Positions 15,983 to 46,561 of a stretch of 64,000 nucleotides of DNA are shown one piece after another. The stretch is from Candidatus Kaiserbacteria bacterium (lineage in GTDB: Bacteria > Patescibacteriota > Minisyncoccia > Phycocordibacterales > UBA2100): NCBI GenBank assembly GCA_963767115.1, contig CAVYCR010000001.1:130430-194429 (forward strand). The letters run 5' to 3'. Numbering within the stretch: the first letter of the stretch is position 1; each line of letters starts with the position of its first letter. Position numbers and translations under genes: made by a program. The notes beneath the pieces are model-generated. The model had not been told where the DNA came from and did not search any database. It saw only the letters and a program-made list of their open reading frames with translations.

Positions 15983-15983
15983 A

Positions 15984-22692: not shown

Positions 22693-22697
22693 GGCTG

Positions 22698-24108: not shown

Positions 24109-24151
24109 CTACTTCGCGACAGAAATGTCGCTTCGAAGTGCACCGCACAAG

Positions 24152-25478: not shown

Positions 25479-25756
25479 CTATTTCACTGCGTCCTTCAAG
25501 GTCTTCGAAGCGCGGAATTTCGGCACTTTCATCGTCTTGATCTGAATCGTCTGCGCCGGTGCGCGGGTTGCGACCCGTGCGACCGGCGCGGGTCTTCGCC
25601 TCAAAAATTCCCAAGCCTGCGATAGAAACTTCTTCGCCGCTGCTTGAGATGCTCGGTAATGGCCATGATGATCGCCTCTACCGCGCGCTCGCCGTCGGCC
25701 TTGGTGCAGCCGATCGTTGAGGCAACCTTCTCAACCAAATCCATTTTATTTGCCAT
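25479..25756 (-). CDS. hup: HU-family DNA-binding protein; reading frame broken twice (+1, +1) as sequenced
   Basis: Three consecutive frames together spell a complete HU protein: MANKMDLVEKVASTIGCTKADGERAVEAIIMAITEHLKQ | GEEVSIAGLGIFEAKTRAGRTGRNPRTG | QTIQIKTMKVPKFRASKTLKDAVK*. Junctions lie near 25636-25642 and 25551-25557. The span is 278 nt, i.e. 3n+2. Confidence 0.8.
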
Positions 25757-26068: not shown

Positions 26069-27602
26069 CTATCTCGCGTATTCGATCACGCGTGTCTCGC
26101 GGATAACGCTCACTTTGATTTCGCCCGGATATTGCATCTCTTCTTGAATCTTGTCGGCGATGTCACGTGCGATCTTGCGCGCGTCGAGGTCGGTGACGTT
26201 TTCGGGCTTCACAATGACGCGGATCTCGCGACCGGCCGCTATCGCGTAACTCTTGTCGACGCCGGGAACGTTGTTGGCGATCGCTTCGAGTTCTTCGAGG
26301 CGCTTGATGTAGTTCTCGACGCTGTCGCGGCGCGCGCCGGGGCGGCCGCCGGAGATCGCATCGGCGACCTGCACGATCATGCTTTCGGGCGTCTCGTACG
26401 GATATTCCTCATGGTGTGCTTGCATAGCTTTTACGACTCGCTCGTCGACGCCGAACTTCTGCAAGTATACGACGCCCGATCTCGACGTGAGTGCCCGGCA
26501 CTTCGTGGTCGACTGCCTTGCCGATATCGTGAAAGAGCGCGCCGGCGCGTGCGATAGCAGGATCGGCACCAAGCTCCTCGGCAAGCATGCCTGCGAGGTG
26601 TGCGACTTCGACTGAGTGGTCGAGGACGTTTTGGCCGTAGCTCGTACGGAAGTAGAGGCGGCCGAGGATCATGATGAGCTTCGGGTCGAGGTCGGGGACG
26701 CGTGCGGCGTACGCTGCCTCCGCGCCTTTCTTCTTGATGATGGTGTTGATCTCAGCTTCGGCTTTCTGCACGGCCTCTTCAATCTTCGCGGGTTGGATAC
26801 GACCGTCGAGAATGAGATTCTCAAGCGCGATGCGCGCGACCTGGCGGCGTATCGGATCGTATGAGGAGAGGGTAATGGTGCCCGGCGTATCATCGACGAT
26901 GACGTCGACGCCGGTGGAGCGCTCGAATTGGCGGATATTGCGGCCTTCCTTGCCGATGATCTTGCCCTTGATCTCGTCGTTGGGAAGCGTGACGGTCGTT
27001 GCAAGTACATCTGAGACGACGGAATTGCCGAGGCGATGCACGGCGGTCGTGAGGATTTCCTTGGCGCGCTGCTCAAGGCGCTGGTCGCCCGAGATCTCAA
27101 GCTTGCGCATGCGGCTCTCGATGTCGCTCTCGTAGCGGCGTTCGACTGCTTTGATCAGCTCTGACTTCGCGTCATCAGCCGAGAGATTGGCGATGCGCTC
27201 GAGTTGTTCTTGCTGGCCGCGCGCGGCTTCCTCGAGAGCCTGGCGTGCCGCTGAGAGATCCTCGTTCTTGCGGGCGAGGTTTTCCTGTTCGGCATCGAGG
27301 TTGGTCTGGCGATTATCGAGCAATTCTTCCTTGCGGACGAGGCGTTCCTCGACGCTCTTGAGCCCGCGCTCGCGCTCTTTGAATTCGTCGCCGATCTCAC
27401 GGGCTTTTTCTTCGGCACGGGCCTGTGAATCTTCGGTGATCTGCTTTGCCTTTTCTTCGGCGTCAAGCATCATCTTGCGGACTTGCAGCTCCATCGAGCC
27501 GCGTTTGCCGAGACTAATAATATATCGGAGAAAGTAGCCTATTCCGACGCCCGCCAAACCCACAAGGGCGAGAAGAGCGAGCAAAAGTTTGACTGAAATC
27601 AT
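26069..27602 (-). CDS. rny: Ribonuclease Y; reading frame broken once (+1) as sequenced
   Basis: N-terminal TM segment, coiled coil, KH domain (IKGKIIGKEGRNIRQFE) and HD domain (ALFHDIGKAVDHEV) are in ORF 26409..27602. The remainder (QKFGVDERVVKAMQAHHEEYPYETPESMIVQVADAISGGRPGAR...) is in ORF 26069..26584. The junction is near 26458-26466. The span is 1534 nt, i.e. 3n+1. Confidence 0.85.
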
Positions 27603-27769: not shown

Positions 27770-27934
27770 GCCGCCGCTCTGGTTAGGTGTTTGCGAACCT
27801 CGCGCAGCAGATGTCACATCCCCACGTCATATAGTAGTGGAAAACAAAAACCGCCCAGCAGGGCGCTTTCTGTTTTGAGGGTCGGTATCTAAGCTATTGC
27901 GGTATGTTCGCAAACACCTAACCAGAGCGGCGGC
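27770..27934. repeat. Foldback element E (conserved-core family; 29-bp perfect arms)
   Basis: Arms 27770-27798 and 27906-27934 are perfect complements. The 107-nt interior is near-identical to those of elements G and B (B inverted). It ends 5 nt from the clpP stop (minus strand). Confidence 0.85.
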
Positions 27935-27939
27935 AGCAA

Positions 27940-28542
27940 CTAACTCAACACCTTATCGACAATACCGTACTTCAGGGCCTCCTCGGCCGTCATGAAGAAG
28001 TCGCGGTCGACGTCGTTCTCGATCTTTTTGAGGGCTTGGCCGGTGGATGCGGAGAGAATCTTGTTGAGACGCTCACGGAGCTTCAAGATCTGCTTAGCTG
28101 TGATTTCGATATCGGCAGCCTGACCTTCTGCTCCTCCGTGTGGCTGATGGATCATGACCTCGGCGTTTGGCAAGATATAACGCTTGCCCTTCTCGCCCGC
28201 AGCGAGCATTACCGCTGCCATACTTGCTGCCATGCCGACGCATACGGTAGAGACGGGCGGTTGCATATGGCGCATGGTGTCGATGATAGCAAGGCCGGCC
28301 GTGACTACGCCGCCGGGGGAGTTGATATAGAGGGAAATCTCTTTCTTCGGGTCTTCAGACTGCAAGAAGAGCAACTGGGCTATCACGAGGTTGGCCACTT
28401 CGTCGTTGATCGGGCCACCGAGGAAGATGATGCGCTCGCGGAGCAAGCGGCTGAAGATGTCGTATGCGCGTTCGCCCATCGAAGTCTTCTCGACGACCAT
28501 GGGTACGAGCATTTGTGCTTTGATCTGAGGGATGTTTTGCAT
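27940..28542 (-). CDS. clpP: ATP-dependent Clp protease proteolytic subunit
   Basis: Full-length match to ClpP: [22 protein letters not shown]...[18 protein letters not shown]...[14 protein letters not shown]...MIHQP. Confidence 0.95.
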
Positions 28543-28595
28543 GTCGAAAGGGTATCAAAGAAAAGATACGCGAGCAAATCCTCCCATGTTAATCG

Positions 28596-29012
28596 ATGGG
28601 AATGCTATCTGGAAAATGTGAGAATCTTATATATACTTCCCGTATGGAACACCTAGAAGGTAGACAGCAACCACCAATCAAAATCGAAGAAGCTTGGGAA
28701 AAAGATCCCCATATTTCGGATCCGAGAAAGTTCTATAGTGTACAAACAATGTTTGCACAGCTTCGCTATGCTAAGCGCCACCCGGAACAAAAGGTAGATC
28801 TAGACAATCGTACTGGAAATCCGAAAGAGTTGAGACTTGCCATTGGTGCTTCTTGGACGCAACAGGATTCAGAAGATTTTGAAAAATTTATAGGGGAACC
28901 TGCTCGTGCAGAATACCTAAACGCCGACCTAAAAAATAGGCAATCGATCGAGGCACTACTCGAGCTATTTTTTGCAGAGTATCCAAGAGCTAAAGAGGAA
29001 ACTCGGCATTGA
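28596..29012 (+). CDS. Hypothetical protein
   Basis: 138-aa ORF in an AT-richer segment. No RBS or family recognised, and the start is uncertain (28596 or 28644). Confidence 0.35.
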   Translation: MGMLSGKCENLIYTSRMEHLEGRQQPPIKIEEAWEKDPHISDPRKFYSVQTMFAQLRYAKRHPEQKVDLDNRTGNPKELRLAIGASWTQQDSEDFEKFIGEPARAEYLNADLKNRQSIEALLELFFAEYPRAKEETRH

Positions 29013-29071
29013 AAAGACCTGTGTTCCCGATGGGCTCGGAGCTGTCTTCGTGCAGTGTAGACATGCCGCGT

Positions 29072-29464
29072 CTATAATGCGGTACTTCCTTCCTCAAGCC
29101 ATCTGGCAATCTCGTCGATGTGAGGCTTTTGAGTAACAATCCAGATCATAAATGTCTCTATCTCGCCCGATTGCGGCGCTAGGTCGTATTCATTGAGTTT
29201 CAAAAAATATGCGCCAATGAGATAGGAGGTGCGTTTGTTCCCGTCGACGAATGTGTGGTTGCGCGCGATACTATCGATGAGCGCTGCTGCTTTTGCAAAC
29301 GGCCCGGCAAACATTTCTTCGCCGCCGTTTGATGTTTTTGGTCGCTCTAAGCACCTCAATAAACTATTCATGTCGCGCACGCCGAGCGTACCATTGGTAA
29401 GTCCCAGAACGGTTGCATGAAGCGCGAGTGCTTCCTCGATGTGTATGTATCTTATTGACCCCAT
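29072..29464 (-). CDS. doc: Doc (death-on-curing) / Fic-family toxin
   Basis: The HTFVDGNKRTS motif (Fic/Doc HxFx[D/E]GNxR), 130 aa, located directly downstream of an AbrB-type antitoxin gene. Confidence 0.85.
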   Translation of the reverse strand: MGSIRYIHIEEALALHATVLGLTNGTLGVRDMNSLLRCLERPKTSNGGEEMFAGPFAKAAALIDSIARNHTFVDGNKRTSYLIGAYFLKLNEYDLAPQSGEIETFMIWIVTQKPHIDEIARWLEEGSTAL

Positions 29465-29471
29465 AAAATTG

Positions 29472-29711
29472 TCATTTGTCGGAAAGTGCCTCGAAATCCT
29501 TGCGATATTTTTCTACGTAAGCGGTTGCCCAAGTGACTGCATCGGCAATCTTGGGGTTCTTGCCTTCACGCACGCGTTCAACTACCACGCGATCGGGACC
29601 TTCCGCGCGCACATCCACTGCTTGTCCAAGCTCAAAACCGAACTCTTCCGCCAGAGGCTTGGGGAATACGACGCCGATTGAGCTGCCGATATTGATTATC
29701 TTTTGAGCCAT
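29472..29711 (-). CDS. AbrB/MazE/SpoVT-family antitoxin (Phd-like partner of Doc)
   Basis: 79 aa. IINIGSSIGVVFPKPLAEEFGFELGQAVDV is a swapped-hairpin AbrB-type DNA-binding fold motif. There is an 8-nt gap to doc. Confidence 0.75.
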   Translation of the reverse strand: MAQKIINIGSSIGVVFPKPLAEEFGFELGQAVDVRAEGPDRVVVERVREGKNPKIADAVTWATAYVEKYRKDFEALSDK

Positions 29712-29771
29712 ATATTTAGACTTCCAAGTGATTATAATGCAATTATAATCATCTTACTTTCGAAATGCAAG

Positions 29772-30872
29772 CTATGTGCTGTGCTGGTGGGTGGTGTGGC
29801 CTACCGGCTCGGTGTTGCCCTCGAGGAAGCGGAGGGTCATTTCGTTGCGAAGGGCATGACGGACGTGGGCGCGGAGGGATTCACGGTCGGCTTGCGGGTA
29901 GTGCTCTTGGGCGTGGTCGAGCTCGTGTTCGACGACGTCGGTTTCCGGCTCGATGTTCTCTTTGCGAGCTATTTCGGCAAGTAGTAGCCGCACTTTGGCG
30001 CGGTTGTCAGCAGCGGGACGCCATTCCTCGCGGAGCTCCTCGCGGGTCTTCTTGGTATCGATGAGGTACTTCTCGTAGGTCATGCGCATGCGCTGCAGAT
30101 CGTCCTTGAGGCGCGACTCGATCTCATCGAGCTCGTAGCTGAGGAGTGACGCTGGGTAGCGGACGGTCGAGGCCTTAACTATCTCGTCGAGAATCGCGTT
30201 GCGAAGCTTCTGCTGCGCCTGCATCGTCTTTTCGTTCATTATATTGTCATGCAACGCCTCGGAGAACTTCGAAGCGCTCTCGTAGCCGACCGATTGCGCG
30301 AATGCATCGTCAAGCTCGGGCAGCTCGTCCGCTTTCATCTCGCGGGATTCCTCAGCGGCCTTCGGCGGCTCGACGCCGTTCTCGATCTTGTCGATGCGTG
30401 CTCGCTCGCGGCGCAGGTGTAAGAGGGCTTCGTCGTGCTCCGCGTCGGTCACGGTGATCTCTTCTTTGCTTTCACGCTGTTTCTTGGCGATCTTCGCGTA
30501 GTCGCCAAGCTCGATCTGCGGCGCTAGGCCTGCACGCGCGGTGAAATGAAGCGGCTTGCCGCTTTGCGGTTCGTCGGTCGACACACGCGGCGTCTCGACT
30601 ATGGCGATGCTTTCCTTGGCGAGAATTTCGGGCAACTCTTCTTGGATGGCGCGCTCAGCGGCGCGGCGCATGATCTGATCCTCGCCGTATATAGCGAGGA
30701 TCTTATCGACCGGCGCCTTGCCGGGGCGGAAGCCGTCGATCTTCGCGGTCTTCTGCATGTCCTTCAAGACATCGGCGCGATATTTCTCAAGCGAGGCAGC
30801 GTCGATCTGCGTGGAGATTTCCGCTTCCCAGTTTTTCTCGTCCTTTGTAACTCTCACATCGCTATATGACAT
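29772..30872 (-). CDS. tig: Trigger factor (short form without recognisable FKBP/PPIase domain)
   Basis: The N-terminal ribosome-binding domain with IDGFRPGKAP (compare the E. coli IDGFRKGKVP signature) and a C-terminal chaperone domain. 366 aa versus ~430 aa for typical Tig. Confidence 0.8.
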   Translation of the reverse strand: MSYSDVRVTKDEKNWEAEISTQIDAASLEKYRADVLKDMQKTAKIDGFRPGKAPVDKILAIYGEDQIMRRAAERAIQEELPEILAKESIAIVETPRVSTDEPQSGKPLHFTARAGLAPQIELGDYAKIAKKQRESKEEITVTDAEHDEALLHLRRERARIDKIENGVEPPKAAEESREMKADELPELDDAFAQSVGYESASKFSEALHDNIMNEKTMQAQQKLRNAILDEIVKASTVRYPASLLSYELDEIESRLKDDLQRMRMTYEKYLIDTKKTREELREEWRPAADNRAKVRLLLAEIARKENIEPETDVVEHELDHAQEHYPQADRESLRAHVRHALRNEMTLRFLEGNTEPVGHTTHQHST

Positions 30873-30918
30873 TGCGCGAGTTTACCCTGTGGAAGCACTT
30901 GCGTCTAGGTTGTTGGGT

Positions 30919-31155
30919 CTACGGCAACGCCGATGAAGTACTGGTCCGCACAGGTAGAGTGGTCGTACCAGCAGGAATGTATGGCACTTGGTCGATCGGA
31001 TTGCTGACACTATAGAAAGCCTTGTGCCAGACAAAGCACAGATCACCTACTATCAATACGAGCAAAATGATCACGATACCGATAGTTGGCCCGGCCTTTT
31101 TTGGAGGTGCGGGGAGCAGATGATCAGGGTCTTTGATAGGTTTGAGATCACTCAT
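30919..31155 (-). CDS. Small hypothetical membrane protein
   Basis: 78 aa with a single TM helix (PTIGIVIILLVLIVGDLCFVW). No RBS recognised. Confidence 0.4.
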   Translation of the reverse strand: MSDLKPIKDPDHLLPAPPKKAGPTIGIVIILLVLIVGDLCFVWHKAFYSVSNPIDQVPYIPAGTTTLPVRTSTSSALP

Positions 31156-31220
31156 GCCGACAGTATAGCTTTCAGGTTTCAGTTGTCAGCTTTCAATGAT
31201 AGGGGACAACCCCGATTCAA

Positions 31221-31757
31221 TTAGCGGGCGAATTTCTCTTTGTAGAGCTCGACGGATTTCTTGACCGCTTCGAGCGCGGCAGCGCGATCACGGATGCCGT
31301 TGATCTTGACCGGCGCGGGCTTACCCTTGAGCGCCTTGTAGGTCTCGAAGAAGTGCTGCCATTCTTTCAGGGTATGCTTGTTTATATCGGCTAGGTCCTT
31401 CACGTCTTCCCAGCGCTTATCATTTACCGGAACGCAGATTATTTTTGCGTCAGATTCACCGCTGTCAACCATATCCATTATGGCGATCGGACGAACCGTG
31501 ACAAGAATGCCGGTCGCGATGGGGAACGTTGCCAGTATCAAGATGTCGAGGGCGTCACCGTCTTCCCATAAGGTTTGCGGTGCGAAACCATACTCCATCG
31601 GATACGGCGCGTCGGAATAATTAGCGCGGTCGAGCTTGATGAGACCAGTCTCTTTGTCGATCTCGTATTTGTTATGCGATCCTTTCGGGATCTCGACGAT
31701 CACGTTGATTTCTTCGGGCGCATCATCGCCAAGGGGAACGTCGTGCCAGAGGTTCAT
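31221..31757 (-). CDS. ppa: Inorganic pyrophosphatase (family I)
   Basis: The internal ATG at 31757 gives MNLWHDVPLG...INVIVEIPKGSHNKYEIDKETG...YPMEYGFAPQTLWEDGDALDILIL, which are canonical family I PPase motifs. Confidence 0.9.
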   Translation of the reverse strand: MNLWHDVPLGDDAPEEINVIVEIPKGSHNKYEIDKETGLIKLDRANYSDAPYPMEYGFAPQTLWEDGDALDILILATFPIATGILVTVRPIAIMDMVDSGESDAKIICVPVNDKRWEDVKDLADINKHTLKEWQHFFETYKALKGKPAPVKINGIRDRAAALEAVKKSVELYKEKFAR

Positions 31758-32185: not shown

Positions 32186-33575
32186 TTATTCAGTCTCTGT
32201 CTTCGGTTCGACATCGACCTCAGAAGGCTCTTCGCCGCCACCCTGGTCGGTCTCTGCGTTGACGGCATCCGACGGGACGTCGCGGTCTTGGTTGATGGCT
32301 TCGGCGTTCTCGACACCAGTGTCAGCTGCTTCGTCATCGTCACCGGAAATATCCGACTTCGCTTCGGCGAACGCGTCCTGCGTGTTGATCGAACCTTCAT
32401 CGGTTATTTCCAGTACGGGCACGGTGCTTTCAACGGGAGTCTCGGCCTTCGGCGCGACAGTAGCGACTGATTCGCCGCCGACGCCGCGAATGTCGATCTT
32501 CCAGCCGGTAAGCCGTGCCGCCAAGCGGACGTTCTGCCCGCCGCGGCCGATTGCGAGCGACTGCTGGTCTTCGTCGACCTGTACGATCGCGCGGCTTTCA
32601 TCTTCAAAGAGCTCGATGTCGAGAATCTGTGCGGGCTTGAGCGCTTCTTTGACGATAATCGCCCGCGTTTTCGCTCCATTCCACGACGTCGATCTTCTCG
32701 CCGCCGAGCTCCGAGGTGACGACCGCGACGCGCACGCCGCGCTGGCCGACCAAGGCGCCGACCGGGTCGACGTGCTCATCGTGAGCTCTTGACCGCGATC
32801 TTGGCGCGACTTCCCGGCTCGCGTACGATGCCCTTGACCTCGACGACGCCACTTGCCATTTCGGGCACTTCGGTCTCGAAGAGTTTCGCCAAGAAGCGCG
32901 GGATGCGAGCGAGAAAGACGGATGAAGGTGCCGCGAGCGCCTTCGTCGACGCGCAAGAGCAGCGCGCGGACGCGCTCTCCTTGGCGATACCGCTCGCCGG
33001 GGATCTGCTCGTCGTAGGGGAGGATGGCGGTCGCGCGGCCGAGGTCGATGAAGAGATTGCCGCGCTCGAAGCGCTGCACATGGCCGGTGACGATCTCGCC
33101 TTCGCGCATCGCCGTACTCCTCGATGATAGAAGCGCGCTCGGCTTCGCGGATCTTCTGCATGATCACTTGCTTCGCCGCTTGCGCGGCGATGCGGCCGAA
33201 ATCGTCTCGCGTCTCGAGGGGGAAGGAGATCTCCTCGTCGAGCTGCGCGTCGCGCTTGATGCGACGTGCGTCCTCGATCATGATGTGCTGCTCGGGGTTG
33301 AAGCGGGAGCGGTGGTCTTCGTCGCTCTTCTGCTCTTCGTCTTCGCGGCGCACGAGCGTGTCGTCGACGACGATCTTGGCCTGGCGGAACTCCATGTCGC
33401 CGGTCTCGGGGTTAAACGTTGCGCTGACAATTTGTCCGCGCTTGCCGTATTCGCGGCGGTAGGCGGCGGCGAGCGCCGTAGCGAGCGCTTCAACCACGCT
33501 TTCGCGGCTGATGCCGCGCTCGGCCTGCAGCTCGTCGAGCGCGCCGTTTAGTGTCTTGAGGTCAAAAAGTGCCAT
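32186..33575 (-). CDS. nusA: Transcription termination/antitermination factor NusA; reading frame broken four times (+1 each) as sequenced
   Basis: Successive conserved NusA segments sit in rotating frames: N-terminal domain to REAERASIIEEYGD | REGEIVTGHVQRFERGNLFIDLG (S1) ...SRSHP | FLAKLFETEVPEMASGVVEVKGIVREPGSRAKIAVK | HDEHVDPVGALVGQRGVRVAVVTSELGGEKIDVVEWSENA | IIVKEALKPAQILDIEL...LAIGRGGQNVRLAARLTGWKIDI (KH2) plus an acidic tail. Junctions lie near 33103-33112, 32896-32903, 32781-32790 and 32660-32668. The span is 1390 nt, i.e. 3n+1, which fits four extra nt. Confidence 0.85.
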
Positions 33576-34153: not shown

Positions 34154-35909
34154 ATGTACATTTCTGACACGCATCTCAAATCCTTTCTCGCTGACGCGGG
34201 TCTTGTCTCCGCAAAAGACTTCGACGCCGCAGAAAAAGAAGCGAAAGACGGCGGCAAGACAGTCGGCGATGTCTTGACCGCCAAGAACGTGATCGGCGAA
34301 GACGAACTGCGCCGCACGTACGCATACATCCTCGGCATCCCGTTCGTCTCGCTCTCTGGCACGATGATCAAATACGACACGCTCTCGCTGATCCCCGAGC
34401 CGGTCGCGCGTCGCAACAACATCATCGCCTATAGCAAGAAGGCCGACGAGCTCGAAGTAGCGATGCTCGACACCGACGACCTCGCCGCGATCGACTTCAT
34501 CAAGAAGAAGACGCGGCTCAAGGTGCTCCCGAGGCTCACCGACGCCGCCTCGATCAAGACGGCGCTCAAGCTCTACCAGCAGGGACTCAAGGACAACCTT
34601 GGCGACGTGATCGAGCGTGAGACGGCAGCGCTCGCGCAGTCTGCCGCCGCTGCGGGCTCCGGCGAGGCAAAGGAAGAGGAGCTCAAGCTCGCCGAGGGCG
34701 TGCCCGCGGTGCGTATCGTCGACACGTTGCTGCGCCACGCCAACGCGCAGGGCGCCTCCGACATCCACATCGAGCCATTGGAGGGCTCACTCCTCATCCG
34801 GTATCGCATCGACGGCATCCTGCATGACGCGATGGAGCTGCCCAAGCACGCCGCCGCTGCTGATGACTGCGCGCATCAAGGTACTCGCGAGCATGAAGCT
34901 CGACGAGAAGCGTCTTCCCGCAAGATGGCCGCTTCACCGCCGAGGGTGACGGAGAGAAAGTCTCTTTCCGCGTCTCGATCTTGCCGACGTACTTCGGAGA
35001 GAAGATCGTCATGCGCTTGCTGCGCGACAACGTCTCGGGCTTCACGCTCGAGTCGGTCGGCTTCCATGGCACTCGCGCTCGAGCGCATGCATGAAGCGGT
35101 GCAAGAAAACGACCGGCCTGATACTCACCACGGGCCCCACCGGCGCGGGCAAATCGACGACACTCTACACGCTCCTCGACATCGTCAACACGCCGAACGT
35201 GAACATCTCCACCATCGAAGACCCGATCGAATACCAAATGGCGCGCGTCAACCAGACGCAGGTGCGCCCCGAGATCGGCTTCACCTTCGCACAAGGCTTG
35301 CGCGCGCTCGTACGCCAAGACCCAGACATCGTCATGGTCGGCGAGATCCGCGACAAAGAGACGGCAAGCCTCGCGGTCAACGCCGCACTCACCGGGCACT
35401 TGGTGCTCTCTACTCTTCACACCAACTCTGCGGCGGGTGCTGTGGCGCGCTTGCTCGACATGGGTATCGAGCCCTTCTTGCTCGTCTCGACCTTGCGGAT
35501 CATCATCGGCCAGCGCCTCGTGCGCAAGCTTGATGCCACCAAGGAGAAATACGAACTCTCGCGCGACGAGCAGGGGAGCTTGGAGCGCGTAGTCGATCAA
35601 GGTGTCGTCTTGAAAGCGCTCAAGGATGAGAAGATCGTGCCCGCAACCGCCACTTGGAAAAACGTGCCGTTCTTTCACCCTAAGGTAAGCGAAGAACACC
35701 CGTCGGGATACACCGGCCGCGTCGGCATCTACGAAGTATTACCCGTCACCTCGACCATCAAGGAACTGATCATGAGTAACGGCACCGGCGATATGATCGA
35801 GGCGCAAGCGCGCAAGGAAGGTATGCTCTCCATGAGCGAAGACGGAATCTTCAAAGCCGCTCAAGGTGTCACTACTATTGAGGAAGTGCTGCGTGTAATC
35901 ACGGAATAG
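34154..35909 (+). CDS. pilB: Type IV pilus assembly ATPase PilB (GspE family); reading frame broken four times (+1 each) as sequenced
   Basis: N-terminal T2SSE_N-like domain to [21 protein letters not shown] | [20 protein letters not shown] | [50 protein letters not shown] | [10 protein letters not shown] | [23 protein letters not shown] (Walker A) ...[12 protein letters not shown]...LVLSTLHTN. Junctions lie near 34856-34863, 34916-34922, 35066-35072 and 35098-35104. The span is 1756 nt, i.e. 3n+1. Confidence 0.85.
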
Positions 35910-36462
35910 TATAGTAAATCAGTCAATATTCGGAGGTGACGCATCTGAAATTCGGCAACATAAGCATATCGACTCATGTCCGGAGAAACTGTTGCTCGAC
36001 GCAAATCGTGACTTTTATAAGTGCCCATTGTAGTCTTGTAATCGGACTACTTATAGAAACCCGTTCAGGCGAACGGGTAATCTGAGCTCGGAGGTACCAG
36101 TGATGAGAGAATTGCCGGACGGCACGACGATCACCCTTGAAATGGTTCGAAGGAATCTCAAGGTAAATCCTCCGGGGTAAAGTGTCTTGCATATGGAGAT
36201 CGGAGACGCGTACAACGCACCCTTCTTCATCGCGTACCTGCTCGAACGTCTTGAGGATGCGCAGCGGCCTTGGTGGCGAAAAGCATTAGCGCGAGTCGGG
36301 CGATGGTATCGCTCTCACTCAGCGGCAGCAACAAATGCTGAGCGAGGAAAACAACACAGATCGGTAACAGTGATTGATTCGGCAGATGAGCGGGACGCTT
36401 GCACTCTCGCGGCAAGATAGCTTACGAAAGTCACCAGTAGGCCATGTTGACCGAAGTACATC

Positions 36463-36493
36463 ACGCGCGTCCGAAAGACGCGCGTTTTGATTT
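36463..36493 (+). terminator. Strong intrinsic terminator
   Basis: acgcgcgtc-cgaaa-gacgcgcgt (9-bp GC-rich stem) followed by TTTTGATTT. Confidence 0.8.
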
Positions 36494-36541
36494 GAGAGAA
36501 ACTGTTTCCCTCGTACTAAAGGGATAATTGGAACCAAAAGA

Positions 36542-36574
36542 AAAGGCCAGAGCGTTTTTAGCGCTCTGGCCTTT
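36542..36574. terminator. Bidirectional intrinsic terminator
   Basis: aaaaggccagagcg-tttttag-cgctctggccttt: a 10-bp stem flanked by A- and T-runs, downstream of the minus-strand gene ending at 36604. Confidence 0.75.
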
Positions 36575-36603
36575 CTGGTTAGGAACAATTCGATGCTGAA
36601 ACT

Positions 36604-37197
36604 TTATACCCCAGAGACTTGGTGAATTTGCGCCAAGCGCCCTTGAGCTTCTTTCAGTTGCTGCTCGAGATCATTCGCGACTTGCTCAAAGTGGCGGCAG
36701 CGAGCAGCAAGTTTGATTTCGCGTCGAGCCGCCGAAGAAATCTTGATGAGTTGCTCGTGCGTAATTATTCCCGCAACGAACTTCAAGATGCTCGATGCGT
36801 CAGCGACGCGCACATTCGGCGACGCACTCTTCGACGAGGTGAATCGGACGTCCAGCGATGTTGCCTCGATTCTGTCGCCATAGACGACGAAGTCTTTATC
36901 CGCGCCGACTGCCTTATCAGGGTCTTCGGGATCTTCCACTGCGATCAGCTTATCGCCATCACGGATGACATGGATCACCTTAAGATCCCTCATATGTGTG
37001 GTCCTCGCCATGAGGACTATGATGTGCGCCTTCTCATTTTCCGGTGGGAGAATGCGGAAGGTGCGAGCCAGTGAGGTCGCTCCGACCCGCAGTGTTACGG
37101 GGCATGTTGCTCCGAGCAGCTCGACTTCGTCATAGAGGCCAAGTGATGCAGTGATAACATTGCTCTTGGCCTTGTAGGTAAGTTTCCAAGAAGACAT
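36604..37197 (-). CDS. Hypothetical protein (197 aa) with C-terminal coiled coil
   Basis: The internal ATG at 37197 (MSSWKLTYKAK...) has GGAG about 10 nt upstream. The ORF track extends to 37278. No family recognised. Confidence 0.45.
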   Translation of the reverse strand: MSSWKLTYKAKSNVITASLGLYDEVELLGATCPVTLRVGATSLARTFRILPPENEKAHIIVLMARTTHMRDLKVIHVIRDGDKLIAVEDPEDPDKAVGADKDFVVYGDRIEATSLDVRFTSSKSASPNVRVADASSILKFVAGIITHEQLIKISSAARREIKLAARCRHFEQVANDLEQQLKEAQGRLAQIHQVSGV

Positions 37198-37569
37198 CGT
37201 CTTTTTCTCCGTATGGAAGAGCATCACCCTTCCTGCGCTACTGGACCTGCCGTAACGCCTTGCAGGGACATCGTCCATAAGTATATTACATCGTTATATA
37301 ATTTTGTCAAATTATCATTATCCGATCTATTTCTCTCCCGAATTGTAACCAACCATTCAATTCAAAAACCAACTTGTTCCAGTTTTGTCCCACTTGGGTC
37401 ACAAAAGCGCGAGTGTGAAAAGACTGAACTGCTTCAGTCTTTTCCGCTTTTGTGAAGACGGAGCGATGTGAGCTCAGCAGAGCGAGCCGCGAGTCCGGGG
37501 CTGGAAAATTTTCGAGTGTCGACGAGAAAATTATTGTGGCTCACGTAGCTCTTCTGATAAGATTTGGTG

Positions 37570-38073
37570 ATGCAAAGACTGATAATTATCCGGGGATATC
37601 CGGGTTCAGGTAAGACAACTGCCGGCAAGCTCTTAGAGCAGAATGGCTGCGGGACTTTTATCGATCACAATGCGATTCTGAATTTTATTGCAGGAATTAT
37701 TGGTGATGATGAAGATATCCAGAAAGAAATACACGATTTGGAAAAAGCGATGGTTCGTAAGCTTTTACTTGATAAAAGATCAGTGATCGTCGCGAGAGGT
37801 TTTAGTAGCGAACGCAGAATTAACGAATACGTTGATATTGCGAAACATCTCAACGTTGAGGCACTCGTCTTCAGACTTTCAGTTCCCATGAATCTGCTAG
37901 AGAAAAGAGTAGAAAATGATGAACGAAAGTCTGACTTTAATCCGACGACGAGGCCCGATGCGTTGCATAAGTGGGTTAGCTCAAATCCTCTTGAGGAATA
38001 CCCAGGAGAGATTGTGATCGACGCACAAAACAGTGCTCAGGAGGTCTTTTCAGCGATAAGAGCATATCTTTGA
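37570..38073 (+). CDS. P-loop NTPase / AAA-family kinase-like protein
   Basis: The Walker A motif IIIRGYPGSGKTTAGK lies near the N-terminus. At ~167 aa it resembles small nucleotide or zeta-like kinases. Confidence 0.65.
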   Translation: MQRLIIIRGYPGSGKTTAGKLLEQNGCGTFIDHNAILNFIAGIIGDDEDIQKEIHDLEKAMVRKLLLDKRSVIVARGFSSERRINEYVDIAKHLNVEALVFRLSVPMNLLEKRVENDERKSDFNPTTRPDALHKWVSSNPLEEYPGEIVIDAQNSAQEVFSAIRAYL

Positions 38074-38082
38074 GACTGACAT

Positions 38083-38230
38083 ATGCAAATAAAAAGCGTC
38101 GGAATAATAGGCTTTGGCGACTTCGGCCAGTTTCTTTTTACGCTTGCTAGAGAGCGCTTTCCAGACTTGCAGGTCAAAGTCTTTTCTTCGCGCAAAAATC
38201 CAGATAACAAAGATTTCTTTTCGTTTGTGC
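38083..38230 (+). pseudogene. Possible remnant of an NAD(P)-binding (Rossmann, prephenate-dehydrogenase-like) gene
   Basis: MQIKSVGIIGFGDFGQFLFTLARERFPDLQVKVFSS has a GxGxxG dinucleotide-binding start. Beyond ~50 aa the ORF turns into low-complexity sequence antisense to the 38276..38596 gene. Confidence 0.3.
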
Positions 38231-38275
38231 CACCTGAGAGAAACAGTTTCTCTCATGCTCAAAAAGTAAGCCGCA

Positions 38276-38596
38276 TCAGTCATGATGCGGCTTATCGAAT
38301 CCGGCTTCGTGGTCTGCGCGGACGTGGTTTCTGGTCATCGTATTATTCCAGACACTATGTAGCTCAATATAGGCGAATACCCAACCCATCCATCGCGCGG
38401 CCTTAAGAGCTTCATCGATGGATGTGGTGTCCATTCGCCCGACCTCGTCGCACATCCAGAGGAGATACGGAAGCGGAGCAAGCTGTCCCTCTATAATCTC
38501 TGAGCATGCGGCCTGCGTACCGGGGTAGTGCTCCTCTATCGCAGCCCGGAGCGCTGTGATGGTTCCTCGATAGAACATAGTACCTCTCATCTCCAT
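38276..38596 (-). CDS. Hypothetical protein (106 aa)
   Basis: The ORF has plausible composition (EALKAARWMGWVFAYIELH). No RBS seen and no confident family. Confidence 0.4.
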   Translation of the reverse strand: MEMRGTMFYRGTITALRAAIEEHYPGTQAACSEIIEGQLAPLPYLLWMCDEVGRMDTTSIDEALKAARWMGWVFAYIELHSVWNNTMTRNHVRADHEAGFDKPHHD

Positions 38597-38694
38597 AGAA
38601 GACTAGGCAAAACCTACCATATATAAGAACCGTTTCTCTCATGTTCTGTGCTTTTTCTGCCAAAATATGCTAACGTGCCGGCGGTCACGACCAG

Positions 38695-38931
38695 TTGGCC
38701 AAAACAAGAAGGTTGGTTCTAATGACAAGAGAAAACGAAGTCAAATCCACGGTCAGAGACTCTTTTCTATCCCACTGCGTCGAAAATCGTACTCACTTGA
38801 CGCTATTCCTTATGAACGGGGTCAAGCTGCAAGGGTGTATCACCGAATTTGATGGCGTTGGCGTCCTGCTTGAGCGTGACCGTAAGAAGCAGTTCGTCCA
38901 CTATGGGGCGATATCATCTTTCTTTCCGTGA
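38695..38931 (+). CDS. hfq: Hfq-like (Sm-fold) RNA-binding protein
   Basis: VRDSFLSHCVENRTHLTLFLMNGVKLQGCITEFDGVGVLLERDRKKQFVHYGAISSFFP parallels the Hfq Sm1/Sm2 pattern (QD.FLN..R......V.I.L.NG..L.G.I..FD.F..LL.....Q.VYKHAIST..P). The start may be the ATG at 38722. Confidence 0.65.
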   Translation: MAKTRRLVLMTRENEVKSTVRDSFLSHCVENRTHLTLFLMNGVKLQGCITEFDGVGVLLERDRKKQFVHYGAISSFFP

Positions 38932-39074
38932 CCGTCGGCTGATTCAGCGCAACAAGAAAAGCCCGCGTTTTCGGAAGGAATGCGGGCGTATTTTCTTGTT
39001 TATGCACTCCGGTTGTTGCGCGGACAAGGTGAGGTGTGTAATAGTGTCTGAAGCCGGCAAAAAGGAGGCCGCTC

Positions 39075-39278
39075 ATGTTACGGAGACGCAATGATTCGAG
39101 GTACGAAGTACCACCGTCGGTCATCATCGAAGCGACTAAACGTTCAAGATGGGAAGACGGATTTCTCGACGGTAAAAACGGGAGGGAATCTGCTAGCGAC
39201 GACGCGAGTTATATGAATGGTTTTTGGGCAGGAAAACTGAAGAGGGCGATCGAATCTCCAATGGTTGTTCACATGTAG
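39075..39278 (+). CDS. Hypothetical small protein (67 aa)
   Basis: AAGGAGG lies 7 nt upstream of the ATG. No family recognised. Confidence 0.45.
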   Translation: MLRRRNDSRYEVPPSVIIEATKRSRWEDGFLDGKNGRESASDDASYMNGFWAGKLKRAIESPMVVHM

Positions 39279-39378
39279 AGTATATTCGACCCTGCATTAG
39301 GAGAAAATTTTTGTACAACGCATCGCGTATCGGCGCGCTCGGGATCGAGCGCGCTTTTTTCATATATAATTAATCGCG

Positions 39379-40599
39379 ATGGCGCACTTTTCTTACACGG
39401 CACAGAAGACCGACGGCGAGACGTACCAGGGCGTCGCCGAGGCTCCCGATCGTTTCCAGCTCTACGAGATCATCCGGCGCGAAGGCGGCAAGGTGATCTC
39501 GGTCGACGAGCAAAAGCATACCGGCGTGTGGAGCGCCGACTATTGGAACCAGAAGATGACGCGCGTGAAGGAGTACGAGAAGATACTCTTCGCGAGAAAC
39601 TTGGGCGCCATGCTCTCCGCCGGTCTCGCGCTCTCCCGCGCGCTCTCGGTCATGGAGCGCCAGACCAAGAACATCAAGCTCAAGGCGATCATCGCGGACA
39701 TTGGCAGCGAAGTGCGCCGGGGCAATCCGCTCCACGCGGGGCTCGAGAAGTTTCCGAAGGTATTCCCGAAGCTCTTCGTCGCGATGGTGCGCGCGGGCCA
39801 GGAGGGCGGCGACCTGCCCGCTTCGCTCACGCTGGTAGGCGACCAGATGGAGCGCATGTACGACCTCAAGAAGAAAGTGAAAGGCGCCCTGATCTACCCT
39901 TCGATAATCGTGGTCGCGATCGTTGGCATCGGTATCGTAATGATGATCGTGGTCGTGCCGACTCTCGCAGCTACCTTTGAACAGAGTCATGAGACATTAC
40001 CGGCCTCGACGCAGTTTGTCATCAACGTAAGCAACTTCCTCGTGCATTACACCGTGCTTGCGATAGGTGGCATGATCGGGTCCGTGGTGCTTGTGTATCT
40101 TGCTAGCAAGACTAAGGTGGGGGGTCGCGCTTTTGAGTTTCTCTTTTTGCATACACCGGTTGTCGGCAATCTCATGCGCGAGGTGAACGCAGCTCGTACC
40201 GCGCGCACGCTCGGCTCGCTGCTTGCCTCCGGCGTCGACGTGCTTACCTCACTCACGATCGTGCACGAGGTCTTGCAAAATTCGTATTTCAAGCAAGTGA
40301 TCGACGAAGCGCAGGCCGCGGTACGCGCCGGCGAGCAGCTCTCGACGGTCTTCGAGAAGCGCGTCGATCTCTACCCGCCCTTTGTAGGAGAGATGATCGC
40401 GGTGGGCGAGGAGACCGGCGCCACGACCGAGATGCTCAAGCGCATCGCCGTGTACTACGAAGACAATGTCGACCGTTCCACCAAAGACATGTCGACGATC
40501 ATCGAACCCTTCCTCATGATCATCATCGGGTGCGCTGTCGGCTTCTTTGCGGTCTCTATGATCACGCCGATCTATCAGCTCTCGTCTAATATAAATTAA
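39379..40599 (+). CDS. pilC: Type IV pilus / type II secretion platform protein (PilC/GspF family)
   Basis: 406 aa with two T2SSF repeats (ILFARNLGAMLSAGLALSRAL...; LGSLLASGVDVLTSLTIV...) and three TM segments. It ends IIGCAVGFFAVSMITPIYQL. Confidence 0.9.
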   Translation: MAHFSYTAQKTDGETYQGVAEAPDRFQLYEIIRREGGKVISVDEQKHTGVWSADYWNQKMTRVKEYEKILFARNLGAMLSAGLALSRALSVMERQTKNIKLKAIIADIGSEVRRGNPLHAGLEKFPKVFPKLFVAMVRAGQEGGDLPASLTLVGDQMERMYDLKKKVKGALIYPSIIVVAIVGIGIVMMIVVVPTLAATFEQSHETLPASTQFVINVSNFLVHYTVLAIGGMIGSVVLVYLASKTKVGGRAFEFLFLHTPVVGNLMREVNAARTARTLGSLLASGVDVLTSLTIVHEVLQNSYFKQVIDEAQAAVRAGEQLSTVFEKRVDLYPPFVGEMIAVGEETGATTEMLKRIAVYYEDNVDRSTKDMSTIIEPFLMIIIGCAVGFFAVSMITPIYQLSSNIN

Positions 40600-40638
40600 C
40601 GAGCTTCTCGGGACTAGTCGCTAGCTTCTAGTGAAATC

Positions 40639-42372
40639 ATGAAAAAACAGCTTTCAACTGTCCCACGCGGCCTCACGCTCATCGATACGATGGTCGGCAT
40701 CGCGCTTATGGTGCTGGTCTTCGTCGGGATCTACGGCACCTTCCAGCTGACTGTCGATGTAGTGACCAACGAAAAGGCACAAGCCGGTGCGCTCGGGCTT
40801 GCCGATGAGCGGATGGAATACCTGCGCTCGCTCGGCTACAGCGCTGTCGGCACGGTAGGCGGTGTGCCCTCGGGGAATCTCCCGCAGACGGAGAGTCTCT
40901 CGCTCAACGGGATTAGTTACACGCGACGTACCTATATCGAATACGACGATGATCCGGCAGATGGTCTGGGTAGTAGCGATACCAACGGCATCATCGAAGA
41001 TTACAAATCCGCCAAGGTAGAAGTGCTCTGGAGCTTGAAGGGGATCACGCACAGCGTCGTGCTTGTCGCACGCTTCTCTCCGACGACTGGTATGGAATCA
41101 GCGGTGCCCGGCGGCACGCTCATAATCAATGCAGTCAATTCTGTCGGAGCGCCGATCTCCGGCGCGTCTGTAGCAATCGTGGCAACCTCTGCCTCGCCCA
41201 CGGTCAACATAAATACCTTCACCAATGCGAGCGGCACCGCGACCGTACTCGGCGCGCCCGCGTACTCGGGCTATCAGGTCACGGTGACTGCTTCCGGCTA
41301 TTCGACCGCAAGCACCTACAGCGTGACGAGCCAAAACACCAACCCCAATCCCGGCAATCTTTCGGTCACCAAGAACCATACGACATCCGCAACTTTCGCG
41401 ATCGATCTCCTCGGCACCAAGACCGTTAACACTTGGACACAGGTACTCAGTGGCACATCGACCGACCCCTTCAACAACACAAGCGAGATAGCAACATCAA
41501 CCGGCATTTCTGTGACTGGTGGCGCGGCACAACTTGCCGTAGGCTCGACTACTGGCGAAGTACAATCGGTCGCGTTTAGTCCTTCATATCTTGCCGATTG
41601 GGGGACCTTCACCTGGAGCGATACTCAGCCTGCGAGCACCTCGATCCGCTATCGACTCTACAGCGGCGACGGCACGACCCTCGTTCCTGATTCATATGTG
41701 CCAGGAAATGCCGCGGGTTTTGTGAGCGGCAGCGTGAGTCTTTCCGGTGTTCCAACCAGCACCTATCCTTCACTGCGCCTTGATGCGGTCTTCTCTTCGG
41801 CAAGTACTACGACGACACCATCGCTCACGCTCTGGAGTATCACCGACTCGTACGGCCCTGTGCCGCTTCCCAACATCGCCTTCAATCTCCAAGGCGGCAA
41901 GACAATCGGCAGCGGCCCCGGCGGTACGCTTTACAAATACAGTCAGAACTTCAGCACCGCGGGCAACGGGAGCATCACCATCCCAGGTCTTGAGTGGGAC
42001 AATTACACGGTCACGATCAGCGGCTCAAGCGGCTACGATGTGGCTTCAGCTTGCAACCCGCAGCCCGAGAGTCTTTCGCCGGGATCTACCATGACCAGCA
42101 ACTTCTATCTCGCGGCGCATACGGGGAACTCGCTTCTAGTAGACGTGCGCGGTGCGACAAGTGGCGCCCTGATCCCGAACGCCTCGGTACAGCTCTCGAT
42201 CGCGGGCTACAATAAGACGATACCGACTGATAACTGCGGACAGGCGTTCTTCTCGGGTGTCTCCGCATCAAGTAATTATTCGATCAGTGTGTCTGCGCCA
42301 GGATATTCGACATACAATGGAAGTGCGGTGAGCGTGAACGGCACTTCGAGACTCTCAGTGTCGTTGAATTAA
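40639..42372 (+). CDS. Large pseudopilin-like protein (prepilin-type N-terminus, Ig/CarboxypepD_reg-like repeats)
   Basis: MKKQLSTVPRG|LTLIDTMVGIALMVLVFVGIYG is a pilin-like leader and helix. The remainder is rich in T/S/G beta-type repeats (GAPISGASVAIVATS..., GALIPNASVQLSIAG...). Confidence 0.7.
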   Translation: MKKQLSTVPRGLTLIDTMVGIALMVLVFVGIYGTFQLTVDVVTNEKAQAGALGLADERMEYLRSLGYSAVGTVGGVPSGNLPQTESLSLNGISYTRRTYIEYDDDPADGLGSSDTNGIIEDYKSAKVEVLWSLKGITHSVVLVARFSPTTGMESAVPGGTLIINAVNSVGAPISGASVAIVATSASPTVNINTFTNASGTATVLGAPAYSGYQVTVTASGYSTASTYSVTSQNTNPNPGNLSVTKNHTTSATFAIDLLGTKTVNTWTQVLSGTSTDPFNNTSEIATSTGISVTGGAAQLAVGSTTGEVQSVAFSPSYLADWGTFTWSDTQPASTSIRYRLYSGDGTTLVPDSYVPGNAAGFVSGSVSLSGVPTSTYPSLRLDAVFSSASTTTTPSLTLWSITDSYGPVPLPNIAFNLQGGKTIGSGPGGTLYKYSQNFSTAGNGSITIPGLEWDNYTVTISGSSGYDVASACNPQPESLSPGSTMTSNFYLAAHTGNSLLVDVRGATSGALIPNASVQLSIAGYNKTIPTDNCGQAFFSGVSASSNYSISVSAPGYSTYNGSAVSVNGTSRLSVSLN

Positions 42373-42373
42373 T

Positions 42374-42459
42374 ATGAGAAAACAGCTTTTAGCTTCTAGC
42401 TCACAGCTTCTAGGAAAAATACGTCGGCGTTCTTTGTATTTTCTAGAAGCTAGAAGCTC
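42374..42459 (+). repeat. 86-nt 5' module, copy 1 (hairpin built from GCTTCTAG / CTAGAAGC units)
   Basis: It differs from 43066-43151 at one position by manual alignment. It contains 2x gcttctag, aaaatac-loop-gtatttt, then 2x ctagaagc, giving a ~23-bp imperfect hairpin at 42391-42458. Confidence 0.85.
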
Positions 42460-43069
42460 TTCACTAGAAGCTCGTTCTCGGGGCATGACCCTCATCGAAA
42501 CGGTAGTGTGGATCGCGGTGCTTTCCTTCGCCATGCTCGCGCTCACTACCTCGCTTCTGTATTTCTACCGGACCGATCGGTACGAAATACAGGAAGAGTA
42601 CGCCGTCTCGACGGCACAGCATGCGATGGATGCGATGGTCCGCGCGCTGCGCACGGCCGCGTTTTCCAACAACGGCGCGTATCCCATCCTGTCGATCGCG
42701 CCCGACCAGATCTCTTTTTATGCGAGTGTGTTGCCCAACGATCCTCTGATACAACAGGTGCGCTTCTTCGTCTCCGGCAACTCTATCGAAGAAGGTATCA
42801 TCGAGCCGCAAGGAGACCCGCTCACCTACGCCTCGTCGTCGGAGAGCATTACTGACCTCGGCAATTACGTCCTCAATGCGACACTCGCGACATCGACGTT
42901 CTACTATTACGATCAAAACGGCAATCAAATAACCGACGATTCGCAGTCTGACCAAGTACGCTTCGTAGTGGTGAACCTCGTTGTCGATGTCTCTACCTCG
43001 TCCTTGCCGTCGCAGCTCACGCTCGTTTCTTCCGCGGCGCTGCGCAACTTGCTCAATCTCAATATATGA
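42374..43069 (+). CDS. Pseudopilin-like protein with unusually long 37-aa leader
   Basis: ...EARSRG|MTLIETVVWIAVLSFAMLAL has G at -1 and E at +5. The ATG lies 1 nt after the previous stop. The first 86 nt are duplicated at 43066. Confidence 0.7.
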   Translation: MRKQLLASSSQLLGKIRRRSLYFLEARSSSLEARSRGMTLIETVVWIAVLSFAMLALTTSLLYFYRTDRYEIQEEYAVSTAQHAMDAMVRALRTAAFSNNGAYPILSIAPDQISFYASVLPNDPLIQQVRFFVSGNSIEEGIIEPQGDPLTYASSSESITDLGNYVLNATLATSTFYYYDQNGNQITDDSQSDQVRFVVVNLVVDVSTSSLPSQLTLVSSAALRNLLNLNI

Positions 43070-43151
43070 GAAAACAGCTTTTAGCTTCTAGCTCGCAGCT
43101 TCTAGGAAAAATACGTCGGCGTTCTTTGTATTTTCTAGAAGCTAGAAACTA
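43066..43151 (+). repeat. 86-nt 5' module, copy 2
   Basis: See 42374-42459. The ATG overlaps the previous stop (ATGA). Confidence 0.85.
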
Positions 43152-43192
43152 CTTCAGCTACCGAAGCTCGTTCCCGGGGTGTCACGACACTC

Positions 43193-44611: not shown

Positions 44612-44643
44612 CCGCGAAAAAATCGGTGTGATACAATCGACGC

Positions 44644-45396
44644 ATGAAATCGATGATCGTCGCGAACTGGAAGATGAATCCGCCGACGTTCAGGGAAGCG
44701 AAGGCACTTCTTGAGGCCACCAAGAAGGCCGCCGATGTCGGCAAAAGCATCTCGATCGTTGTGGCGCCTCCTGCGATCTACTTGCGCGATCTGCGCGCGA
44801 GCTATCGCGGCAAAAGGCTCGCCTTCGCCGCGCAAAACGCGCACTACGAAAAGAGCGGTGCCTATACTGGCGAGACCTCGCTCGTCCAGCTCAAGGACGC
44901 TGGCGTCGGCTACGTGATCGTGGGCCACGCCGAGCGTCGTGCGATGGGTGAGACCGACGACGACACGCGCAAGAAAGTCGCCGCATCACTCGCGCTTTCG
45001 ATCACACCGGTCTTGTGTGTCGGAGAGCTCAAGCGCGGAAGCGACGGCGAGCATTTGAGCTTCGTCAAAGAACAGCTCCGTGCAGGGTTTGCCGATGTTC
45101 CTGTAGCGAAGATCGCACGCGTGATCGTCGCGTATGAACCGGTGTGGGCGATTGGTGCCACGACACCCATGGGTCCGCGCGACATGCACGAGACTGCCAT
45201 TTTCATACGCAAGACGATCGTGGAGCTCTACGGCAAGGTCGGTATGTCAGTGAAGATTCTCTACGGCGGTTCGATTGACGAGGTCAGCGCTCCGGCAATG
45301 CTCCAACAAGGAGACGTCGACGGGCTGCTCGCGGGGCGCGCGAGCGCTGAAGGCAAAAGAATGCTCGCACTCGTGCGTGCGATGCAAAACGCCTGA
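44644..45396 (+). CDS. tpiA: Triosephosphate isomerase
   Basis: IVANWKMN...VVAPP...AQN...GAYTGE...VIVGHAERR...YEPVWAIGT...YGGS: full set of TIM motifs. Confidence 0.9.
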   Translation: MKSMIVANWKMNPPTFREAKALLEATKKAADVGKSISIVVAPPAIYLRDLRASYRGKRLAFAAQNAHYEKSGAYTGETSLVQLKDAGVGYVIVGHAERRAMGETDDDTRKKVAASLALSITPVLCVGELKRGSDGEHLSFVKEQLRAGFADVPVAKIARVIVAYEPVWAIGATTPMGPRDMHETAIFIRKTIVELYGKVGMSVKILYGGSIDEVSAPAMLQQGDVDGLLAGRASAEGKRMLALVRAMQNA

Positions 45397-45398
45397 CT

Positions 45399-46557: not shown

Positions 46558-46561
46558 TGCC

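Follow-up and report, generated by a model that had tools for sequence, protein, structure and literature searches.

Four single-base insertions in pilB of a Candidatus Kaiserbacteria contig are most likely sequence errors of the deposited genome

Introduction

The pilB gene of a Candidatus Kaiserbacteria contig raises a simple question: are the four extra bases that interrupt its reading frame mutations of a living population, positions that the cell decodes in some unusual way, or errors of the deposited sequence? The gene occupies positions 34154..35909 on the forward strand of the window, the term that we use here for the whole stretch of 64,000 nucleotides that was analysed, and its frame shifts four times, each shift corresponding to one extra base in the window sequence. 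Solved examples of the GspE/PulE superfamily include the PilB proteins of Myxococcus xanthus (3JC8) and Geobacter metallireducens (5TSG/5TSH), PilF of Thermus thermophilus (6F8L), and GspE of Vibrio cholerae (1P9R). In contrast to known PilB proteins, the one studied here is, as encoded, split into five frame pieces.

Reading frame path of pilB

The path of the reading frame was followed by three-frame translation, by a DNA alignment with three orthologous genes, and by a frameshift-aware protein-to-DNA alignment, and all of them were concordant. Expressed as the coordinate modulo 3, the frame passes from 2 to 0, 1, 2, and 0. In the DNA alignment, where nucleotide identity is 80-83%, exactly four columns set a window base against a gap in all three orthologues, while the frameshift-aware alignment detects one +1 event beyond each of the codons that end at 34861, 34916, 35073, and 35101, along a path without a stop codon. 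These concordant results bear out the initial annotation, which had described four +1 shifts on the upstream side of the Walker A box, and they refine the junctions that it had located at about 34860, 34919, 35069, and 35101 to 34861-34863, 34915-34920, 35070-35074, and 35101-35102.

All the pieces and insertions lie on the forward strand. The first piece, in frame 2 (34154..34860), contains the N-terminal MshEN domain and the beginning of the T2SSE ATPase domain, to ...ELPKHAAAA, and is followed by a non-homopolymer insertion at 34861..34863, where the extra base is T34861, G34862, or A34863. The second piece (34864..34914, frame 0) has about 18 codons and precedes one extra base in TTCCCG (34915..34920), which is ambiguous among the TT run, the CCC run, and the G. 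About 50 codons long, the third piece (34921..35069, frame 1) reads from QDGRF... to ...VGFHG, and the extra base that follows it lies in CACTC (35070..35074) and is again not of the homopolymer type. The fourth piece (35075..35100, frame 2) comprises about 9 codons and the motif ALERMHEAV (35075..35101); it gives way to another non-homopolymer insertion, extra G35101 or C35102 (35101..35102). The fifth piece, in frame 0 (35103..35909), carries the Walker A, Walker B, and His box motifs and runs to the stop codon at 35907..35909. The lengths measured for the three intervening pieces, about 18, 50, and 9 codons, replace the range of 20-50 codons that had been given for them.

That the conserved motifs of this region are distributed among different frames holds true. 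A motif of 17 protein letters is found in frame 0 (34869..34919), QDGRF (34921..34935) and a motif of 16 letters (34975..35022) are both in frame 1, and the Walker A sequence GPTGAGKST is in frame 0 at 35133..35159, with the last break about 30 nt upstream of it; however, the first of the motifs originally quoted is itself split by junction 2. The Walker B motif (12 protein letters) spans 35319..35354 and the His box (11 protein letters) spans 35391..35423.

The breaks are more clustered than they would be under uniform placement, since four of them fall within 241 of the 1756 nt of the gene (p ~0.009, calculated by hand with the range formula n × r^(n-1) - (n-1) × r^n, where r=0.137). The earlier statement that this is the highest density of breaks in the window is correct in that pilB has the most breaks per 250 nt, whereas the gene for HU, with two breaks in 89 nt, is locally comparable.

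The repaired PilB protein

When the four bases are deleted, pilB consists of 583 codons plus a stop, with no internal stop codon, which agrees with the 584 codons that the initial annotation had given for the corrected ORF. The repaired protein has a single T2SSE (PF00437) match that covers profile positions 6-370 of 370 (E 2e-119), while the two large ORFs of the gene as encoded cover positions 6-55 and 139-370 only. The MshEN domain (PF05157) is matched at residues 60-144 (E 1.5e-12), and the features of GspE/PilB-type proteins, Walker A, Walker B/Asp box, and His box, are present. Compared with the solved PilB structures 3JC8 and 5TSG, the repaired protein aligns from end to end (E 6e-114 to 3JC8). 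Its best match among more than 8000 homologues is an intact orthologue with 90% identity, and its named matches, which come from Candidatus Kaiserbacteria, Paceibacterota, and Patescibacteria, are GspE/PulE or PilB proteins, with those listed being 574-627 aa long. The actual gene is most likely one pilB of 583 codons, whose product is predicted to be a working type IV pilus assembly ATPase.

A tetracysteine zinc site is typical of GspE/PilB proteins. The tetracysteine zinc-binding motif is absent from the C-terminal domain of the repaired PilB, a protein without any cysteine. Because none of the 81 PilB orthologues described below has four or more cysteines, the missing zinc-site residues are, judging from these sequences, a clade-wide trait that is unconnected to the frameshifts.

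Conservation and selection on the coding sequence

Our set of orthologues comprised 81 pilB genes from 80 species-level genomes and other contigs. There are 217 positions that are conserved in at least 95% of these orthologues, and the repaired PilB has the consensus residue at every one of them (217/217), including the 39 of 39 conserved positions that fall in the broken stretch of 98 residues. Strong purifying selection is indicated by the dN/dS values against three orthologues, which are 0.02-0.06 across the broken stretch and 0.05-0.10 over the remainder of pilB. In these comparisons, we observed no sign of relaxed selection in the repaired gene, neither raised dN/dS nor lost conserved residues. 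All 81 orthologues are single ORFs, free of extra bases at the pilB sites. A comparison with orthologues had been suggested in the initial annotation; its outcome, 81 intact genes and the retention of all conserved residues, points away from a biological origin of the breaks.

Insertions of the same type in nusA, HU, and RNase Y

The breaks of pilB are not the only ones in this part of the contig. Seven more single-base insertions are found within 10 kb, four of them in nusA, two in the gene for HU, and one in the gene for RNase Y, as determined by aligning the proteins of a relative (L001) to the window with frameshifts allowed. The window and L001 are syntenic over the block of genes HU - RNase Y - ClpP - trigger factor - pyrophosphatase - NusA - PilB. 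The insertions of nusA (32207..33575, reverse strand) are at 33108, 32899-32903, 32783, and 32656; that of RNase Y (26072..27602, reverse strand) is at 26462-26466; and those of HU (25482..25744, reverse strand) are at 25641 and 25551/25552. The genes for ClpP (27943..28500), trigger factor (29781..30872), and pyrophosphatase (31224..31757), all on the reverse strand, have no insertions and are intact although they lie between broken genes.

Deleting the 11 single bases makes the four broken genes free of stops, of the expected length, and multiples of three. The lesions form two short clusters, at 25.5-26.5 kb and 32.6-35.1 kb, that together span ~3.4 kb. Outside 25.5-35.1 kb, no further breaks were detected by a codon-usage frame scan and Pfam checks, which have lower sensitivity where orthologues are not used. 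Two suspected breaks proved to be boundaries between genes: the one at ~61.1 kb corresponds to rpsL followed by rpsG, and the one at 39370/40618 corresponds to pilC plus a separate gene.

Lesion spectrum and the possibility of genuine mutations

Every one of the 11 lesions is a +1 insertion, and deletions are absent; with equal chances for insertions and deletions, such a result would have p = 0.0005. At least 7 of the 11 sites cannot be changes in the length of a homopolymer, and the overall pattern is compatible with a random base at a random position. Errors of the homopolymer or slippage type were considered and rejected; in a simulation of random insertions, 45% were identical to a neighbouring base, which is compatible with the observed figure of at most 4 of 11. 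We also considered whether both alleles of a SNP had been kept in tandem. Each of the four pilB insertions does allow a reading as two adjacent synonymous alleles of a third codon position, and 7 of the 11 sites overall fit such a reading against a null expectation of ~0.70, which gives no support beyond chance and leaves the idea as speculation.

This spectrum bears directly on whether the insertions are genuine, that is, whether a population or its dominant strain has only very recently lost a functional pilB and also carries broken genes for NusA, HU, and RNase Y; such mutations could come from a burst of insertion mutagenesis over a segment of ~10 kb. We regard this as unlikely. Extra bases of this type do stand in the deposited contig, and their arrangement in two short clusters is what a localised mutational event might give. 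Against this, the repaired PilB keeps 217/217 conserved residues, has a dN/dS of 0.02-0.06 across the breaks, and shows neither stops nor deletions, and neutral decay does not resemble four independent indels in 241 nt without one damaging substitution. Spontaneous bacterial indels favour homopolymers and deletions, unlike the lesions described here, which are exclusively insertions and mostly outside homopolymers. The mixed spectrum of a pseudogene, with deletions, stops, and homopolymer slips, was not seen across the 11 lesions of the four genes. Furthermore, nusA is usually essential in bacteria, and the broken nusA is the single copy in the window, in a position syntenic with L001. Real decay should have left substitutions, deletions, and stops, a pattern not seen here, and it would be unlikely to break nusA.

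A related proposal goes further and has very little probability in our judgement: the extra bases would be real and produced by a localised process that inserts single bases in the ~10-kb segment of nusA, HU, RNase Y, and pilB, being tolerated through correction at the level of RNA or the ribosome, or else derived from a very recently dead lineage or extracellular DNA. If the bases were real, the joint breakage of nusA and pilB without sequence decay would require a new mechanism, and nothing in our analysis supports one.

Sequence context and the possibility of recoding

The initial annotation had raised extreme GC content or secondary structure as possible causes of the breaks. Neither explanation is sustained by the data. 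The GC content across the pilB breaks is 58-67%, and its maximum of 70-71% is reached upstream, at 34600-34750, a region that is unbroken. The predicted RNA fold of the 291-nt stretch at the breaks has an unremarkable z-score of -1.43, and the repeats near the breaks are weak and at chance level only.

A chimeric origin of the broken segment was rejected, as every segment of pilB has the same nearest relatives (L004 and L005). The 11 sites lie in DNA somewhat more conserved than average, with a median percentile of ~0.7 (Mann-Whitney p = 0.014, a value that is uncorrected for clustering), and the enrichment of the insertion sites in conserved DNA is modest. At the DNA level, conservation within pilB peaks in the middle segment, with 89% identity to its nearest relatives. 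A search for a shared methylation or slippery motif gave a best candidate whose p of 2e-4, a value uncorrected for the tens of thousands of motifs tested, falls short of significance. As a separate observation, the window encodes a Type I R-M system.

The context of the breaks is also informative about whether pilB is decoded despite its extra bases, by programmed +1 frameshifting, transcriptional slippage, or some other form of recoding at the four sites. It is true that every shift is +1 and that the flanking coding sequence is perfectly preserved, and the need to skip one extra base to obtain a conserved protein recalls programmed frameshifting of the prfB type. Nevertheless, the extra bases here are unconserved, with none at the pilB sites in any of the 81 orthologues; they occur at four serial sites; they lack a slippery, stop, or hungry-codon context; and the 11 sites have no motif in common. 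The old frame continues past junctions 1 and 4 without interruption for over 140 codons (to 35531), leaving no stop or hungry-codon pause; past junctions 2 and 3, it meets stops 7-10 codons on. The local fold is as ordinary as stated above. Tamas and co-workers are said to have described, in 2008, the rescue of frameshifted genes by transcriptional slippage in endosymbionts. In contrast to that situation, the pilB sites contain neither a poly(A/T) tract nor any other A/T run able to support transcriptional slippage. Four inefficient shifts in series would, moreover, be expected to leave almost no full-length product. We consider recoding of pilB to be extremely improbable.

Public record and independent assembly

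Exact-sequence look-ups place the proteins of the window on one deposited NCBI/ENA contig of 200,265 bp. The public record holds a truncated nusA ORF (307 aa), a fragment of RNase Y (397 aa), and a fragment of HU (61 aa), and because these truncated products are on record, insertions of this type are part of the deposited sequence.

For pilB itself, the 459-aa ORF of the window is absent from the public protein collection by exact look-up. This leaves room for the proposal that the pilB lesions arose after deposition, so that the window would differ from the public record at four sites. In its favour, look-ups in the public protein collection confirmed neither of the two pilB ORFs of the window (459 and 272 aa), and homology searches returned no self-match for the N-terminal part of PilB. 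However, the look-up applied to the 272-aa ORF appears to conceal the source contig, as one pyrophosphatase sequence is present by one look-up and off record by another. Truncated products of nusA, RNase Y, and HU stand on record for seven lesions of exactly this type, and an intact pilB on record would give a top match of ~100%, whereas the best one is 90%. The absent self-matches would also be explicable if the gene caller had kept the C-terminal ORF only. Taken together, these observations make a change after deposition highly improbable.

The organism is also present in the independent Logan assembly of run ERR11630394, from which we retrieved three contigs. Contig L087 corresponds to 27840..31733 with 1 mismatch and no gaps; contig L086 is identical to 35332..42401 and thereby supports pilB from 35332 to 35909; and contig L088 corresponds to 43040..50384 with 3 isolated SNPs and one hypervariable stretch of ~100 nt. 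Apart from that stretch, the three contigs are 99.97-100% identical to the window over intact genes. The isolated SNPs and the hypervariable stretch show that the sample contains strain variants.

The three contigs end before every broken stretch, so the lesions lie outside their coverage, and on this point the proposal of genuine mutations has in its favour that no independent assembly contradicts it directly. Looking up the frameshifted ORFs gave none on record from Logan. We searched for independent sequence across the 11 sites by homology searches with repaired sub-sequences, by exact look-ups of the repaired RNase Y, HU, partial PilB, and neighbouring ORFs, and by exact-pattern scans of JGI metagenome contigs, and these found none. 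The independent k-mer assembly, for its part, breaks around the locations of the insertions in the deposited contig.

Probable origin of the insertions as assembly or consensus errors

Our results very probably reflect assembly or consensus errors of the deposited MAG contig of this Candidatus Kaiserbacteria (Patescibacteria/CPR) organism, and not mutations of the living population. We favour this origin for the extra bases of pilB because the insertions are the only damage to its coding sequence, because lesions of the same type break nusA, HU, and RNase Y nearby, and because the insertions look random, share no motif, and have no counterpart in any orthologue. On the sequence evidence, the feature is most likely an ordinary sequence error and not new biology.

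The way in which such errors could arise is suggested by the insertion-only clusters, the intact coding sequence, and the strain heterogeneity of the sample, from which we infer that the clusters mark poorly supported stretches of consensus. The conserved cores of genes may recruit reads from co-occurring strains or relatives, and graph assemblers would halt at such mixed-read cores. A contig that bridges these gaps, by means of long reads, scaffolding, or local assembly, may keep or acquire indel errors, and later polishing could fail to mend the indels, or go wrong, in those same stretches.

Comparable errors have been documented. Watson and Warr reportedly pointed out in 2019 that indels of long-read assemblies truncate ORFs. 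Chen et al. (2020, Genome Res; PMC7111523) described "local assembly errors" without support in MAGs, including a CPR genome, and reported 13 such errors in one CPR genome of 1.1 Mb (PMC7111523). With long reads, nearby allelic variants that are collapsed into one consensus can produce indel errors (Cosentino et al. 2021; PMC8445201). The lesions of our contig are like the documented errors of MAGs and long-read consensus sequences in that small unsupported changes break conserved genes and propagate into databases, and the concentration of documented consensus errors at places of population heterogeneity can be likened to the present case. They differ from the documented MAG errors in being exclusively single-base insertions, 11 of them tightly clustered in ~3.4 kb, and we do not assign them to an error class. 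A profile of pure insertions outside homopolymers is also atypical both of Illumina assemblers and of polished Nanopore consensus, which counts against an artefact.

If the insertions are artefacts, the core genes of a public MAG contig contain no fewer than 11 errors that break a reading frame. Annotation pipelines would then label pilB, nusA, HU, and RNase Y as pseudogenes, and the main use of our analysis would be as a warning against doing so. Such errors could also give rise to mistaken reports that CPR bacteria have lost their pili or have decaying genomes.

Pilus neighbourhood

The statement of the initial annotation that pilC and the pseudopilin genes are unbroken is confirmed, since all of their ORFs are uninterrupted and pilC (39379..40599) has two T2SSF domains. 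The prepilin-like genes are located at 40639..42372, with a prepilin-like N-terminus; at 42374..43069, with a weak N_methyl motif that is under the Pfam cut-off; and at 43193..44611. Together with pilC, they lie 3.5 kb downstream of pilB, past a block of unrelated genes. A ComEC gene at 51813..53306 is intact. A set of genes for pili and DNA uptake is commonly reported for CPR bacteria, and the repaired pilB agrees with this picture when considered alongside pilC, the prepilin-like genes, and ComEC.

Single-base insertions in neighboring genes

The nusA gene (32207..33575, minus strand) carries four lesions, at positions 33108, 32899-32903, 32783 and 32656, all of which are single-base insertions, of the same type as those found in pilB. 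The public record holds a 307-aa out-of-frame ORF that is produced by the broken nusA. Two further genes on the minus strand are also interrupted by single-base insertions: HU (25482..25744) is hit twice, first at 25641 and again at 25551/25552, and RNase Y (26072..27602) once, at 26462-26466. The two breaks in HU lie within 89 nt, a local density comparable to that of pilB.

Cysteine content of PilB and the block between pilB and pilC

ATPases of the GspE/PilB family typically possess a tetracysteine zinc site. The PilB protein obtained after repairing the four insertions (34154..35909) contains no cysteines, and none of the 81 orthologues from loci L001-L085 has at least four; therefore, the tetracysteine zinc site is missing from PilB throughout this clade.

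The pilB and pilC genes are set apart by a 3.5-kb block of lower GC content (35910..39370), which includes a 224-aa gene on the minus strand (36604..37278), an AAA_33 kinase-like gene (37564..38073), a possibly degraded ORF (38083..38406), and an Hfq-like ORF (38722..38931). In the relative L001, which has a syntenic HU-to-PilB block, pilC likewise does not adjoin pilB.

Strain variation between the deposited and Logan contigs

Comparing the deposited contig with L088, a Logan contig of run ERR11630394, a stretch of about 100 nt (window 43070..43165; L088 31..123) shows 24 mismatches and 4 gaps, while its flanks are nearly identical. This stretch is located directly 5' of a pilin-like gene (43193..44611) and represents a leader or N-terminal region that varies between strains; the product of the gene is called at 513 aa in Logan, compared to 472 aa in the deposited contig. 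In clpP, the deposited contig and L087, a second Logan contig of that run, differ by a single A/G change (window 28266; L087 3468), because of which the 200-aa ClpP is on record from NCBI/ENA only; this difference is further evidence of co-occurring strains.

Other features of the window

A complete Type I restriction-modification operon occupies 9453..15988 on the minus strand, with hsdR (9453..12419), hsdS (12398..13807) and hsdM (13811..15988). The GC content of the island carrying these genes is 0.41-0.46, compared to about 0.55 elsewhere, and the operon was probably acquired horizontally. A 550-aa ORF (16500..18149, minus strand) has a strong match (E 3e-67) to the cellulase-type domain of glycoside hydrolase family 6, which looks unexpected in a small-genome Patescibacteria organism. 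Four tRNA genes, Arg-TCG, Gly-GCC, Pro-TGG (minus strand) and Gly-TCC, are clustered at 22618..24109.
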